A stretch of 64,000 nt of DNA from an uncultured delta proteobacterium. GTDB taxonomy: Bacteria; Desulfobacterota; Zymogenia; Zymogenales; Zymogenaceae. Each line of letters starts with the position of its first letter. Within the stretch, counting starts at the first letter, position 1. The position numbers were made by a program. This document shows, in pieces, positions 33,001 through 42,000 of this stretch. Location of the stretch: positions 640,001-704,000 of the forward strand of contig CAVTLK010000002.1 of NCBI GenBank assembly GCA_963735595.1. Reading direction: 5' to 3'.

Positions 33001-36000
33001 TCCCGACCAATGGCTCTGGACGAGGCCGCGCTGGAAACCGTAATAAGCCGTTATTGTTTTGAGTGGACGGTGTAAATCGCTGAATAAAAAACCCCTTCAG
33101 GTTTCCCTGAAGGGGTTTTTGAGTTCTCTTATTTTACCGCTTAGAAGTCGTAGGTAAGGACGTTGTTGATCATCCAGATCGGGCCCCATTCCTGGTGGGT
33201 GCCACCGACGTTATAGTCGAACGAATCGCCGGTGAAAAGCACGCCGCCCGAGAAGGTGTAGGTCAGGCCTTCCATGATAACGTACTTCACGCCGAGGTCG
33301 ATCTCCCAGCCGAGGTCCATGCTCCCGTTATACCACGGGGTGTAGGTGGTGGCGGGATTATAGTAATTCATCGGGTGACCATAGGCCCTGGTGGCGCCTA
33401 CCGGCTCGGTCCACTTGGCCCAGATGACCGCCGCGGAGAGCGTGAGCTTGCCGTCGCAGCAGAGCGGGGTGGTCTCGAAGTAGAGCTTGACCGCCGTCAG
33501 GTTCTCGATGTCGTTGGCAAAGCCGAGGCCACGGACCCAGGGGTCGTTCAGGCCGCCGCTGCCGTATCCGCCCGCGATGATGTTGCCGAAGTAGAACGCG
33601 TCGGCGAGTATGTAGTTGGCGTTCCAGACCTCGTCGTCCCAGTCGTTGTCGTTGCTGCCGCTTCCCAGGATGAAGGCAATGCCGGCACGCAGCACGTCGT
33701 TGTGATAGGAGGCGTCGAGGTAGACGTTGATCCCGCCGTTGAACGCGTTATCGACGCCGGGATAATCCTCGCGGCCGAACAGGCCGCTCACCTCGCCCTT
33801 GAGGGTGACCATTTTGGCGATCTCGCCGGTGTAGGTGATGCCCGCAAACCCGAGGTTCGCGTGCGCCCTGGGGGCAGTCGCCCCCCACCCGTGGGATATG
33901 TTGTAGCCCGTCCCGTATTTGACGTAGCCGCCGAAGAGCTCGATGGCGTGGTTCGCGTTCGGGGTGTACTTGAGGTCCAGCGCCCAGATCTCGGAATCGC
34001 GGTTATAGAATTCGCTCGCGCCGCCCGCTATAACGTTGTCGTTCCACTTGAAGTACATCGCGGATACGCCCACGGGGCCCCACTTGTTGGCCCACTTGAG
34101 GCCGTCGAGCTTGCCGAGGCTGTCGGAAAACGCGAGCCCGTACCCGAGGGTCACCGGCTGCTTGCCGACGGTGAACGTCCCGATTGTGGGCACGTTGAAT
34201 TCGAGATACGCCTTCCGAACGAATTCACCGGTGATGCTGTTGTTGATCCTGAAGTTCCTCTGCTGGCCCCAGGTGTCCTCGACGAGGTCAAACTGGACGA
34301 CGGCCTTGAGGAAGTCGCTGCTCTTGTGCGTGATGGTCAGGCGGAACCTCTGGTCGAAGTAACCGGTGTAGAGGCCCCGCTCGGACGTCGGGTCGGTGGC
34401 CTTCTTGTCGAAGTTCCAGTTCGAGAACGCCCTGATCCGGTACTGCCCGTTGAAGGTCGTTTCGGCCGCGAACAACGGGGCCGTGAAGGCGACCGTCAGG
34501 ATAACTGCTACCGCAAGAATTAATAGTCTCCTCATCCAATTACCTCCCGATTCTTTTTACTACATACTACATACTAATGTCGGTATCTGAATACAGTAAT
34601 ACATTGTTGTACTTTTTATCATCTCTATAGCAGCCGTGTCAAGAAAAAAATTAAGATATTCTAATAGTAGCGGTAGGAAAGGCCGTTCTTGCCTCCGGGC
34701 CGCGAAGAGACGCGTGGCGGCCTATGTGGCGATATCCCTGATACCGACGATCGTCCTGACGATTTCATCGATGTCGTCCATCTGCTTGATGATACCGATA
34801 TCGGCGGGGGAAATGTTCTCGTACTTCAACACGGTTGAGTTAATCCAGTCCAGGAAGCCCTTCCAGTAGTCACTGCCGACCAGTATGACGGGGAACGGCT
34901 TGATCTTGTGGGTCTGGATGAGCGTGACGGCCTCCGACAGCTCGTCGAGCGTGCCGAAGCCCCCGGGCAGAACGATGTAGGCCAGGGCGTACTTGACAAA
35001 CATCACCTTCCGGCAGAAGAAGTAGCGGAACGAGAGCCTGACGTTAGCATAGTCGTTAGGTTTCTGTTCCATGGGCAGCTCTATGTTGAGCCCCACGGAC
35101 TTTCCCCCGGCCTGGGCCGCGCCCTTGTTGGCCGCCTCCATGATTCCGCCCCCGCCCCCGGTGATGACCGAAATCCCATTTTTTGCAAGCTCTCCCGCAA
35201 GCCGCTCGGCGAGCCGATAATAGGGGTCGTCGGGCTTCACCCGTGCCGATCCGAAGATGGACACGGCCGGCGTCACGTCCGGCAGGGTCTCAAAGCCGTC
35301 CACGAACTCTCCCATTATGCGGAACATCCGCCATGAGTCCTTGGACCCGATGGCGTCGATCAGGTATTGCTTTTCAGAGTTCTTATCCACTATCGGTATT
35401 CCTTTAGATAATAATGACTGCGGCGGCCGGTGAGGCGGCGAGTGGGCGAAGGCCACCAATATCCGTATTGTAGTATATCTGCGTACAAAAGGAAATCCTA
35501 ATGTGGATGAGCAGCGGTTTTTTCGGCTTACCGATTGCCGGGCCGGCATTCCTATTGACAATTCGTGCGTTCTGATTTAGGATTTAGCCATGAAGATACT
35601 ACAGAACAAACGGGGGGCTTCCGGCCTCGGCATTCTCGGCTACATCATCGCAGTAATCCTCATCCTCTGGGGATTGATCAATCTCTATTCCCTGGCGGCC
35701 CCCGGCGCGGGCAACCCCACCGGGAGGGTTATCATCGGTCTCGTGTTGATAGCCATCGGCGGCGGGCTCCTCTTCTTCATCCCGAAGTGGGAATCCCGGC
35801 GGCCCCAGCAGATAGAGATGACCCAGAAGATAGACCTGGCGGGAAACGTCAACACCGCGAAACTAAAATGCCAGAACTGCGGGGCCGATCTGGACAAAGA
35901 CAGTGTGGCGGTGAGGGCGGGGGGTATCTTCGTCAACTGCCCCTACTGCAAGAGCGCATACCAGATCACCGAGGAGCCCAAGTGGTAGGATGCCGGCCCC

Positions 36001-39000: not shown

Positions 39001-42000
39001 GATGGAAAAGTGCCACACCTGCGAGAAGCTCGATGTCTGCGGCGGCGGCTGCCCGCTGGAGCTGCAGAAAGACAGCTACTGCTGCCCGGACAGCCTGAGC
39101 AACCCGTAGGCGATTCGAAAGGGACCGTGCCCGTCCGGGGTTTCCCAGCGAAGACGAATAAAGCCGAAAAATTACTAAAGCCGCCCGGAAGGTGGGCGGC
39201 TTTATCGTCTGTTTTACCTGATAATCCAGGGCCACGGGGACCCGGCTAATAGACCCTTTGCCCGTTGGCAACCTGCCGATCCACCGACAACAGCACTATC
39301 CCCGAGTAGCTGTCCACCCCGAGCACCAGAACCTCCGACCTGACGCCCGCGACCTGCTTGGGCGGGAAGTTGACCACGCAGATCACCTGCCGCCCCACCA
39401 GATCTGCCGTGGAGTAGAGCTTCGTAATCTGGGCGCTCGACATCCGCGTGCCGAGGTCGCCGAGGTCGATCTCGAGGATGTATGCGGGCTTGCGAGCCAG
39501 CTCGTTGAGCCGGGCCGACTTTATCGTCCCCACCCGCATGTCCACCGAGATGAACTCTTCGTAATCTATCATGGGTTGGCTCCTGGCAGACAATTATGAA
39601 TTGATTGAAATACCTTGTCAAAGGAAAAGAATTGACAGGGGAACAGAAAAGCGGGAATGATAGTCCCATGGCGAACGTCACGGAAGATCGGGAGCTTTCC
39701 TACCTCGGCCTCCAGGCCGGCTGGACAAGGGCCATGCGCGTCCATCTCTACCGCAGGATCGCGCTTATGGCCCGCCGGCGCATCCTTGACATCGGGTGCG
39801 CCGATGGATTGATAACCGCCGAGATCGCGGCGCGGACCCGGGGAGAGGTCATCGGAATCGATATCCGCCCCGAACGGGTCGGCGAGGCCCGCAGGAACCA
39901 CCCGGACATCGACTTTCGGGCGGCCGACGCCCATGAGCTTCCGTTTGACGACGGGGCGTTTGACGCGGTAATCACCAACTTCACCCTGATGTGGACGGAG
40001 CGCCCCGGCCGGGCGATGGCCGAGGCCGCGAGGGTCCTGAAAAGCGGGGGGGCGTTCCTCGCGTCGGGCGAGCCCGATTACGGCGGCAGGATCGACGAGC
40101 CGGGGTCCCTCTCGGCGCTTACCGGGGCCTGGGCCGAATCAATCGGGGCCGACGGGGGCGACCCCTTCTTCGGGCGGCGGCTGAAGGGCCTCCTTGCCGG
40201 ATCGGGCCTTCGGTCGGTGGAGGTCGGGGTAATACCGTCGGTATGGGAGCCATCGCCGGGCGATGAGCTTGAGGCGTACCTGGATTGTCTGAGGTATTTG
40301 TTTTACGGCCGGGTCCCCGGGGGGGGCTTGACATAGACGAGATTATCAAGCGCGAGCGGCAGGCCGCCCGCTCCGGGGCGCGCCTGGTCTTCCTGCCGAT
40401 CTTCTGGGGGATCGGGGAAAAGCCGTGAAAAGCGATCGCGCCGCCGCGCCCGGCCGGAACTCTCCCGTCATGGTGTCCCGTCCGGCGGGATACAAACCCG
40501 TCAATCTGCCCTGTCCGTCAGTCTGGCGGGCCTTTCCGGTTGTTTCCTGCGGTTTTTTCTCGGCAGGAACGTCACAAGCCCTGCCGGCAGGAGAAACAGG
40601 TCGCCGAAGATCGCCGTGATCATCGTAATCCCCGAAAGGAGGCCGAAATACGTCGTCGGCCTGAAGCTCGCAAACAACAGGCACCAGAAGCCCAGCACGA
40701 GGGTGAGCGACGTGATGACCGCGGCCCTGCCGGTCGTCCTGAACGTGGTGGCGATCGCCTCCTCGTGGGAGGCGCCCGCCCGTACCTCGTGCCGGAAGCG
40801 GCTGAGGAAATGGATCGTGTCGTCCACCGCGATACCCGTGGCCACCGAGGCGATCATCACCGTTGCGGTATCGAGGTTTATCCCGAACAGGCCCATCGCC
40901 CCCATCGTCATCGCCACGGGGATGATATTGGGGATGATGGAAATCAGCCCCAGACGGACGGAGCGGAGCTGGAGGGCCAGGATGAAAAAGATCACCAGAA
41001 ACGACGTGGTGAACGAGGATATCTGGCTCTGGATTATGTAATCGACCATGTGGACATAGAGCGGTATTATGCCGGTGACGCGCCCCGTCAGCCCCTCGGG
41101 GAGGTTTGCCGAAAAGTAGTCGTCGAACTTCTTGATGAGCCGCTTGGAGGTATTGGAGGTCAGACCTCCCGCCGCGCACGCTGACCCGCAGCTCGGAGGC
41201 GTCGAAGTTGACGAAGTAGTCCAGCTCCCCTTCCTGGGAGGTCTCGTAGAGGAGGAGGAGCTGCGCGACGCCCTCCCGCGAGTCGGGGATGGAGTAACGC
41301 TCCGGGTCGTTGTTGAAGAACGCCATGTTCAGCCGCTTAATAAGATCGGTGGCGGCAACCGAGGTGGAGACGTTGGGATCGGTCAGGACAAAGCGCTGGA
41401 ATTTCTCGACTGCAACGAGCGTCCGGGGGTCGTGGGCGCTGCCCGGCTCCCCCGCGATAACCACCTCAACCGGCGAAATATGCCCGAAGTTCTTCTCGAT
41501 AAAACCGTAGGCGTAGCGCAGCGGCTGGCCCTTTTTGAGATAGTCCAGGTTTTGCGTTTCGACCGTGATCCTGGTGATAAAAAAGACCGAGACGGCAAAG
41601 AGGAGCGCGCCGACGATAAGGATAGGCACCGGGTGCCTCAGGTCGAAACGGCAGATAGCGGCGGTGAGCCGGTCGATGATGCCGCCGGCGCGGTGGGCTT
41701 TCGCCCGCGGCTTAGGCCTCGGCATCAGGCTCAGCGCGATCGGGACAAACGTGACGTTGAGGATATAGGCAATGGAGAGCCCCAGCCCGGAAAAAAGGCC
41801 GATCTCGCGCAGGGGAACGATCTTGGCAAAGAGAAATGAGGAAAACCCGACGATGGTCGTTATGGCGGTCATCAGGCATGGCGTCCCCAACAGGCCGATT
41901 GTCTCAACGACAGCGGCCCTCCGATCCATACCCGCACCGATATCGTCCAGGTAGTGGCTGGTGATGTGGATGCTGTCCGATACGCCGATGACCATGACGA

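Follow-up and report, generated by a model that had tools for sequence, protein, structure and literature searches.

Organization of the locus

The window, the whole stretch of 64,000 nucleotides that was analysed, carries on its forward strand three consecutive genes, whose ORFs (35590–35988, 36191–37744 and 37748–39109) hold where the survey's finding had placed them. The first, g01897 (35590–35988), encodes a 132-aa membrane protein that has two helices and, at its C-terminus, a CxxC...CxxC zinc ribbon, for which zinc-ribbon profile matches are sub-threshold only. The second, g01898 (36142–37744), encodes a DUF2207-like single-pass membrane protein, and the third, g01899 (37748–39109, 453 aa), an RRE-radical SAM-SPASM enzyme. 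By pattern match only, a sigma-70-like promoter (35555–35583, forward strand, 10 of 12 consensus bases) lies 5' of the three-gene unit and a terminator-like hairpin (39176–39204, forward strand) 3' of g01899. The three genes are real, but the description as a three-gene unit had overlooked a fourth conserved gene of the system, a class I SAM methyltransferase recognised by domain search at 39668–40336 on the same strand. In this genome csaA, on the opposite strand, sits between g01899 and the methyltransferase gene; it is a neighbour in just four close relatives and was rejected as a member of the system.

The reading frame of g01898 is disturbed. Its signal peptide begins at a GTG at 36142, in a different frame from the ORF, which, owing to a frame break at 36194, is called only from 36191, and nucleotides 37489–37555 (residues ~434–455) are frame-scrambled. 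Therefore, the 517-aa membrane protein reported earlier corresponds to an existing ORF, but its product is distorted by frame breaks and misses the signal peptide; the restored protein is ~535 aa long, signal peptide included.

A DUF2207-like membrane scaffold

The restored g01898 comprises, in order, a signal peptide, a ribophorin-I-like outer domain, a membrane helix, a GOLPH3-like inner domain, a Ser/Gly linker and a Cys-Ala tail. The helix (36866–36922, forward strand) is followed by a basic stretch, an inside-positive pattern from which the topology is inferred, and then by a candidate internal leader, Y253-x-x-[P/A]-x-V, with a family-specific insertion of ~10 residues, EGxGIKRG (36947–36994, forward strand). 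Both folds proposed earlier were reproduced: in the predicted model, the outer domain matches ribophorin-I/Ost1 with Z 14.8 (rmsd 3.0, 178 aligned residues), and the inner domain (residues 285–481) matches GOLPH3 with Z 7.0 (rmsd 4.2, 158 aligned), which falls below Z 8, the level that the fold-search tool calls common.

By profile comparison, g01898 is a remote DUF2207/TIGR04222 relative. Its family is collinear with DUF2207 (hhalign probability 97.7, E 2e-12, 323 columns), and an Atlas model reaches TM 0.57 against a DUF2207 cluster. These similarities are weak at the level of single sequences: g01898 itself has no match to PF09972 or PF20990 in a Pfam search, none of 55 homologues exceeds the gathering score of either (sub-threshold matches only), and TIGR04222 scores g01898 at 14.2 bits against a curated cut-off of 43 bits, although 12 of 51 family members match it at E up to 0.1 (best E 5.8e-7). 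The earlier claim that g01898 hits no Pfam or NCBIfam family is thus too strong, given these weak, collinear matches.

The Cys-Ala tail

The tail, CACACACAGCACACAGGGR (37685–37741, forward strand), is the candidate core and the sole (Cys-Ala)n run seen in a six-frame scan of the whole genome. Across 122 loci every synonymous codon is in use, so that the tail is conserved as protein, and a DNA or RNA element at this position is ruled out by the freely varying codons. It had been described as invariant, which is overstated: the exact 19-mer terminates only 57 of 150 diverse representatives, near-invariance is confined to the CACAGGG(R) core, and the number of Cys per tail ranges from 2 to 10. 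The residue following a tail Cys is Ala in 96–98% of cases, otherwise mostly Val and almost never Gly or Ser; the table of Cys neighbours singled out no acceptor position.

One possible reading is that the tail is modified and then released as a small RiPP, with the membrane protein serving as an oversized precursor. The flexible Ser/Gly linker ahead of the core and the modelled tail, with pLDDT below 50, would fit such a release, as would the entry of tail fragments as precursors in a published dataset (PMC10288494). However, neighbour clustering of 94 clade-1 and 80 clade-2 loci (clade 2 being that of gut Bacillota) revealed no recurring protease or exporter. Stand-alone short precursors were likewise rejected, since none occurs in 201 Chloroflexota genomes or 80 flanked tail-first loci, where the Cys run is at the end of a membrane protein throughout. 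In addition, the predicted location of the tail is the cytoplasm, and clade-2 tails do not sit at the protein terminus. Release is therefore very unlikely.

Pairing of the tail protein with the enzyme

The coupling between tail and enzyme was borne out in searches that did not use the tail as a seed. A tail-less query against 1.84 billion representatives recovered the Cys-Ala tail in 125 of the best 150 matches, the alignments of the other 25 stopping before the tail region. When the search started from the enzyme, the membrane gene adjoined it in 13 of 14 loci, 12 of those 13 with an in-frame tail. Among 201 Chloroflexota genomes, tail-less body, enzyme and tail co-occur in the identical 17, always as neighbouring genes, which rules out chance adjacency, these carriers being kin and hence not independent of one another. 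Among tail-first loci, an active enzyme is found in 68 of 79 (67 of 75 where 1.5 kb downstream is present), and among the 11 without a nearby enzyme, 9 of 10 genomes tested encode it elsewhere, so that an earlier worry over enzyme-less tail loci mostly dissolves. These observations support the view that tail protein and RRE-radical SAM enzyme form an obligatory pair. Of the 79 tail-first loci, 67 also carry a g01897 relative; where sufficient upstream DNA is available, the figure is 63 of 68. Carriers are anaerobic bacteria and archaea, including Chloroflexota, Asgard archaea, gut Bacillota and others, and the sequences concerned run into the thousands, with 2202 and 2896 matches at 90% clustering among the candidates scored.

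Clade 2 retains a reduced version of this arrangement. Its proteins lack the inner domain, and their cytoplasmic part is otherwise unrelated, yet the tail is kept and the enzyme adjoins in 72 of 78 loci. A zinc ribbon is inserted in clade 2, and its match to g01897 spans 27 columns only.

The methyltransferase is part of the system: a relative occurs in 38 of the 79 loci of clade 1 and in none of the 78 of clade 2, and it adjoins the enzyme in three genomes that carry the tail gene elsewhere. A catalytically dead enzyme paralog with an intact RRE is present in 54 of 79 loci, suggesting that docking has value of its own. Further, tail-less paralogs of the membrane protein adjoin a divergent enzyme; they keep the leader-like motif, and that enzyme bears its own Gly/Cys extension. 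The dead paralog, these tail-less paralogs and the methyltransferase that accompanies the enzyme rather than the tail where the genes are split, together with the frequent zinc-ribbon partner, would suit an alternative in which the tail binds metal or an Fe-S cluster without being modified, and the membrane protein is a dock or sensor, tethering and regulating an enzyme that acts on another substrate; a lipid or small molecule on which the methyltransferase also works would be an example. We consider this unlikely, since clade 2 is reduced to enzyme and tail protein, without the methyltransferase, while retaining the same active-site residues, and since an RRE is a reader of peptide substrates. 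Moreover, the CACACA alternation lacks the CxxC spacing usual in metal sites.

A leader-like motif and its putative reader

The candidate leader region is unstructured in the model and located ahead of the inner domain. Its motif is better read as the lasso-type YxxPx[LVI] than as YxP. Among 124 scorable diverse proteins of clade 1, the first position is Tyr in 122, Trp in 2 and Phe in none; 97 match the motif with Pro and 118 match it with Pro or Ala, as Yxx[PA]x[LVIMAF], and g01898 itself has Ala where Pro is expected. The RRE of g01899 (37889–38056, forward strand) has the lasso RRE TfuB1 as its best solved match (E 1.9e-7), with PF05402 above its cut-off. It bears N59 and D96, which are retained in 99% of clade-1 enzymes and spaced 37 residues apart, as are N33 and D70 of LppB, reported to bind the YxxP backbone and the Tyr (PMC13381572). 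Sequence and analogy support a juxtamembrane leader-like motif that the RRE may read.

The earlier proposal that the RRE grips an internal YxP leader gains support for clade 1, in which both the motif and the Tyr-reading pair are conserved, but not as a universal mechanism. Clade 2 lacks YxxPx[LVI] (2 of 71) and keeps the RRE Asn in only about half of its enzymes; 62 of 71 instead show [YW]-x(2-4)-GF, a loose pattern with no chance control. In addition, [YF]xxP is ancestral in DUF2207 proteins: among 16 controls, 9 have Tyr, 7 have Phe and 4 match the full motif, and no such enzyme lies within the 1.5 kb flanks of 17 DUF2207 loci. Part of the motif conservation may therefore be structural. Inherited from DUF2207 and missing in clade 2, the motif was rejected as a universal handle.

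Active site and likely chemistry

The domain assignment of g01899 was reproduced, with PqqD at residues 48–103 (E 6.7e-5), Radical_SAM (PF04055) and SPASM (PF13186). Its CxxxCxxC motif (38180–38203, forward strand; C145, C149 and C152) is conserved without exception in the 71 active clade-1 enzymes. The seven auxiliary-cluster cysteines (C353, C367, C385, C422, C425, C431 and C435) are invariant in clade 1, whereas clade 2 lacks C422, C425 and C431 and is thus twitch-like. A quick enzyme tree (71 of 211 rows, six long-branched outgroups) unites the two clades and the dead paralog in a single group with SH-aLRT 96.

The chemistry is likely the formation of Cys-to-carbon thioethers. The best solved match to the g01899 profile is the sactisynthase SkfB (E 2.8e-29), although PqqE, a C-C cross-linker, scores nearly as high, and the invariant extra C353 could occupy the open iron site reportedly used by thioether synthases. 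Under the positional scheme of PMC10288494, mapped here by motif, the active-site-proximal positions read Y-T-(N/L)-T-Q-S, five of the six being invariant in 71 clade-1 and 71 clade-2 enzymes. This profile has no exact match among characterised enzymes: SkfB, the nearest, reads Y-T-F-S-Q-L, StsB Y-T-I-S-K-L and CteB F-F-T-S-H-Q, the last two differing from g01899 at positions 5–6.

The uniqueness of this profile leaves room for other radical chemistry on the tail, such as epimerisation of each Ala (or Cys) into an alternating L/D strand, or oxidation or desulfurisation of Cys. The strict preference for Ala after Cys, with Gly and Ser avoided although the linker is rich in both, is consistent with such chemistry, as is the variable repeat number. 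We nevertheless regard it as rather unlikely, since invariant cysteines and a SPASM/twitch domain suit thioether formation, and the solved epimerase-type YydG matches only weakly (E 9e-5).

Proposed mechanism

Taken together, gene coupling, domain anatomy, the conserved motif, the tail and the RRE residues support a reading that we hold to be slightly more probable than its negation: g01898 is inherited with g01899, and the enzyme likely docks immediately inside the membrane, on YxxPx[LVI], and is predicted to introduce Cys-to-carbon thioether rings into the tail. The signal peptide would place the beta-sandwich outside and everything past the membrane helix in the cytoplasm. N59 and D96 of the RRE would bind the motif backbone and Tyr, and the disordered Ser/Gly linker would bring the tail, ~250 residues further on, to the active site, where SAM-derived radicals might abstract H from Ala, Gly or Ser and join these residues to Cys sulfur. 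The rings would be short and un-nested, more likely at C-alpha; reportedly, enteropeptins carry a thioether between adjacent residues. In the clade where a free Arg closes the tail, the methyltransferase may add another alteration. The modified tail probably stays attached to the protein, forming a rigid module that might bind metal, and its physiological role is a guess.

Comparison with known systems

Thioethers are installed on proteins by CrpC (TIGR04463) on CrpA of Methanococcus voltae and by QhpD on QhpC, according to part of PMC13692751. As in g01899/g01898, CrpC is an RRE-radical SAM-SPASM enzyme beside a protein whose C-terminus repeats a Cys motif. However, CrpA, of 28.8 kDa, has its leader at the N-terminus and its repeats are C-x-x-Q/D, whereas g01898 crosses the membrane once, carries its candidate leader internally and has repeats of Cys-Ala. 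The 25 best NCBIfam matches of g01899 do not include TIGR04463, and the tail string is absent from the accessible supplement text of the CrpC paper (PMC13692751).

Like g01898, TIGR04222 proteins are integral to the membrane, have a C-terminus that is rich in Ser and Gly and contains Cys, and are proposed substrates of RiPP enzymes. In those systems, as outlined in part of PMC12452194, the enzyme is an MNIO, the tails are predicted to be periplasmic, and the enzyme is missing in about a third of genomes; by contrast, the g01898 system has a radical SAM enzyme, a predicted cytoplasmic tail and nearly strict coupling. The DUF2207 proteins (PF09972/PF20990), as far as covered in PMC10457818, share the scaffold from signal peptide to inner domain, [YF]xxP after the helix and a Ser/Gly-rich end. 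Unlike g01898, the 16 controls have a poly-Gly end closed by Trp (15) or Leu (1), without Cys or the EGxGIKRG insertion.

SkfB, StsB and GggB share with g01899 a related radical SAM/SPASM or twitch fold, and StsA carries a CxCxC run, the rings of streptosactin being un-nested, from Cys(i) to i+3, and ending on Gly34 (parts of PMC10288494 and PMC8172795). Sactisynthases, as described there, act on short precursors with N-terminal leaders, accompanied by proteases and export, and their active-site profile is shared with g01899 only in part. The g01898 system shows neither the short precursor with an N-terminal leader nor, in the neighbour clustering across lineages, the recurring protease or exporter expected of sactipeptide and ranthipeptide systems. 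Lasso and LPP pairs of RRE and leader (TfuB1, LppB) likewise combine YxxPx[LVIFA] with an RRE Asn/Asp pair (parts of PMC13381572 and PMC6784204), but g01899 carries its RRE on the same chain as the radical SAM domain, and in g01898 the motif lies mid-protein at the membrane.

Implications

No account of the g01898/g01899 system was found in the literature searched, most subscription papers lying outside its reach. The survey's finding had called it not described, which is overstated: a 2023 dataset lists, with no explanation, three fragments of the tail, kept as precursors by an independent thioether-RiPP scorer (part of PMC10288494). QhpD and CrpC already cross-link proteins. RRE-guided radical chemistry has been shown for peptides and for a few proteins that do not span membranes (QhpC and CrpA). 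If our reading is true, an internal membrane leader acting on a core ~250 residues away would broaden the leader-then-core rule of RiPPs, and it would explain why precursor-finding tools picked up just fragments of this family. It would also provide the first biochemical handle on the DUF2207/TIGR04222 scaffold. Since cultured carriers exist (Ornatilinea apprima L044 and Gemmiger formicilis L174), the idea is directly testable.

More broadly, and somewhat short of an even chance in our estimate, this may be a widespread system of anaerobes built on a DUF2207 scaffold, in which the juxtamembrane motif came to serve as an internal RRE leader and the poly-Gly end evolved into a Cys-Ala core. On a membrane protein that stays intact, the radical SAM enzyme would then install as many as ten small thioether rings, with the methyltransferase and the dead RRE paralog adjusting the process, to give a new kind of covalent cytoplasmic cofactor for a transmembrane sensor or scaffold.

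Gene models in the window

The survey's three ORFs, together with the tail and the enzyme domains, were all found in place; they encode the zinc-ribbon membrane protein (g01897), the membrane protein with a C-terminal Cys-Ala repeat (g01898; tail at 37685-37741) and the RRE-radical SAM-SPASM enzyme (g01899). The 517-amino-acid ORF of g01898 exists, but the product as called is distorted by frame breaks. Its signal-peptide-like stretch starts at a GTG (36142) in a frame that differs from the called ORF, in three of four runs one base at 36194 is absent from related contigs, and compared with three close genomes the frame is shifted over residues ~434–455, owing to indels near 37489-37555. 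Full-length homologues are mostly 530–570 amino acids long, with a few of ~770, and by inspection start with hydrophobic signal peptides. We infer that the frame breaks are probably long-read assembly errors.

Elsewhere in the window, an MMPL/RND-type gene at 40346-42826 and 40501-41049 (-) lies in two frames, compared with a single long ORF in the close relative L126, and this split is likely another assembly indel. The sequence of a 464-amino-acid protein (33141-34535, -) is porin-like and rich in aromatic residues, with a signal peptide and a C-terminal Phe; a Pfam search found no family for this protein at E up to 1.

A DUF2207 scaffold with a Cys-Ala end

It had been stated that g01898 matches no Pfam or NCBIfam family. 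The window protein indeed has no Pfam match, but a weak match to TIGR04222 (residues 263–340, E 0.025) and a relation to DUF2207 exist. Among 55 homologues, DUF2207 matches are sub-threshold and in the correct order along the protein, a tail-less g01898 profile aligns with 16 DUF2207 proteins over 323 columns (probability 97.7), and an Atlas comparison likewise leads to DUF2207. In the structure modelled for an intact homologue (mean pLDDT 85.7), an outer beta-sandwich resembling ribophorin I or the N-terminal domain of aminopeptidase N (Z 14.8) is followed by a membrane helix, an unstructured stretch (268–287), an inner domain from residue 285 with a middling likeness to GOLPH3 (Z 7.0), and a disordered end. 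It follows that g01898 is built on the DUF2207 scaffold, from which it departs in two ways: ~10 residues are inserted behind the juxtamembrane motif, and a Cys-Ala end replaces the poly-Gly-Trp end of DUF2207 proteins. The ~770-amino-acid homologues (P0032, P0036, P0038, P0054, P0081, and P0091) have an extra N-terminal region, which contains PF06439 in P0091.

CACAGGGR ends all 120 best matches of the full-length g01898 query, a count open to circularity since that query contained the tail. Of the 150 representatives that best match a tail-less query, 57 have the window's exact 19-mer at their end, 61 another CACAGGGR tail, five a close variant and two CACACASGGAG, while the alignments of the other 25 end ahead of the tail region and these look truncated or frame-shifted. 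The tail is thus not the invariant seven-Cys element first described, as the Cys count varies from 2 to 10 and only those 57 have the exact sequence. The residue after Cys is Ala in 96–98%, and every synonymous codon is in use.

Pairing of the tail protein with the enzyme

An active enzyme is located within 5 kb in 68 of the 79 tail-first loci (80 minus one duplicate). Loci with a tail and no enzyme nearby, which had been held against the system, do occur (11/79), but nine of the ten tested have an orthologue elsewhere in the genome, at 41–55% identity. In the reverse direction, the membrane gene adjoins the enzyme in 13 of 14 enzyme-first loci, and the fourteenth has a generic enzyme (27%). 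Three separate queries match the same 17 of the 201 Chloroflexota genomes sampled, with no match to any of them in the remaining 184; in the window's own phylum, the g01898 body is present in 9/9 family members and in none of the 31 other genomes searched. Carriers among the loci include Anaerolineae, Asgard archaea, Thermoplasmatota, Planctomycetota, Acidobacteriota, Zixibacteria, and Coatesbacteria. The g01898–g01899 system is real, and the pairing of tail protein and enzyme is close to obligatory.

Further genes accompany this pair. A class I methyltransferase (39668-40336) has a counterpart in 38/79 loci and goes with the enzyme where the genes are split; a csaA chaperone gene lies between enzyme and methyltransferase (39246-39593, -) in close relatives only. 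A second enzyme paralog, found in 54 of the 79 clade-1 loci (the window's type), mostly in Anaerolineae, forms one clade and has lost all cluster cysteines, both CxxxCxxC and SPASM, with its RRE intact (N 100%, D 98%), as in Ornatilinea apprima (L044:2421-3581, -). Decoy, scaffold and regulator are possible roles for this paralog. In four loci (L053:1-2794, L078:1107-3736, L269, and L306), a divergent enzyme bears its own Gly/Cys extension (GGGGCSGCSGSCGTGG), and the short membrane-protein paralog downstream has neither outer domain nor tail but retains its inner domain and the Tyr motif; it looks as though the Cys segment had been transferred to the enzyme. Some genomes have two tail genes (L154, L175, L205; L088/L089; L074), flanking a single enzyme in Lachnospiraceae and in tandem in Chloroflexota.

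A second clade in gut Bacillota

The enzyme-first match L134 was the entry point to a gut-Bacillota type, clade 2, with 2896 matches among 4265 candidates and at least 121 genome stretches. Its outer domain is homologous to that of clade 1 (probability 97.8), the GOLPH3-like domain is absent, and the cytoplasmic part is reduced to as few as ~25 residues ahead of the first Cys; the tail runs on beyond GGGR with AGC and a short extension. The enzyme is twitch-like; across 78 loci (two duplicates dropped) it is present in 72 and upstream in most, and a methyltransferase is present in none. Common to both clades are an outer domain, the core CACACAGGGR and the active-site residues of the enzyme, and this set of shared parts is the best argument that the tail would be the substrate. 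That the tail is instead an unmodified ligand, or the membrane protein a dock, seems unlikely.

In 32/71 clade-2 proteins (L144-L223) a zinc ribbon is inserted between membrane helix and tail; it recalls the zinc ribbon that clade 1 encodes in a gene of its own, and homology between the two is weak. Two Chloroflexota genomes and one Eggerthellaceae genome have the clade-2 cassette as well (L150, L216, L197).

Candidate leader and predicted chemistry

The YxP motif proposed as a leader gripped by the RRE is there in clade 1, where it is juxtamembrane and better read as YxxPx[LVI], a motif of lasso type, but not in clade 2. Among 150 diverse representatives, 124 were scorable; their first motif residue is Tyr in 122 and Trp in 2, Yxx[PA]x[LVIMAF] fits 118, and Pro is present in 97. 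In 16 DUF2207 controls, the corresponding residue is Tyr (9) or Phe (7), with the full motif in 4. The closest solved relative of the g01899 RRE is TfuB1. In g01899, the conserved pair N59 and D96 has the spacing of N33 and D70 in LppB, two residues that contact the backbone of YxxP and the hydroxyl of its Tyr (PMC13381572). Most simply, a motif that DUF2207 proteins already had may have been recruited as a leader. Three points tell against this reading: the motif is older than the system, the window genome has Ala in place of Pro, and in clade 2 only 2/71 have the motif and the RRE Asn is relaxed. For clade 1, a specific structural rationale now backs the candidate-leader model. From the Tyr to the first tail Cys there are 234–264 residues (107 homologues).

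Under the six-residue active-site scheme of PMC10288494, with positions mapped here by motif, the reading is Y-T-(N/L)-T-Q-S in both clades. The sactisynthase SkfB comes nearest to it and, among solved structures, also matches the enzyme profile best, with PqqE a close second. We lean toward thioether formation on the tail with RRE docking, and regard other chemistry on the tail as possible but rather unlikely. Because the repeat number varies, the tail argues for putative local rings rather than a single fixed hairpin, and the i to i+3 rings of streptosactin provide a precedent (PMC8172795). Release of the tail as a peptide is improbable.

Relation to published systems

The system had been presented as not described, and in the literature searched we found no account of tail protein and enzyme as one system; however, three fragments with the Cys-Ala tail are already listed beside RRE-radical SAM enzymes in a precursor sheet (rows 3034-3036), classed as "Other Uncharacterized", group 40 (PMC10288494). 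Visual comparison matches them to the C-terminal part of the g01898 family consensus. That study restricted its analysis to groups with more than five sequences, and the parts of its text consulted make no mention of a membrane protein. TIGR04222 membrane proteins have been proposed as MNIO substrates (PMC12452194), and radical SAM thioethers were shown on the protein CrpA (PMC13692751). The predicted reaction, RRE-radical SAM modification of a protein, is known in kind, and what is unusual here is the membrane scaffold together with a candidate internal leader.
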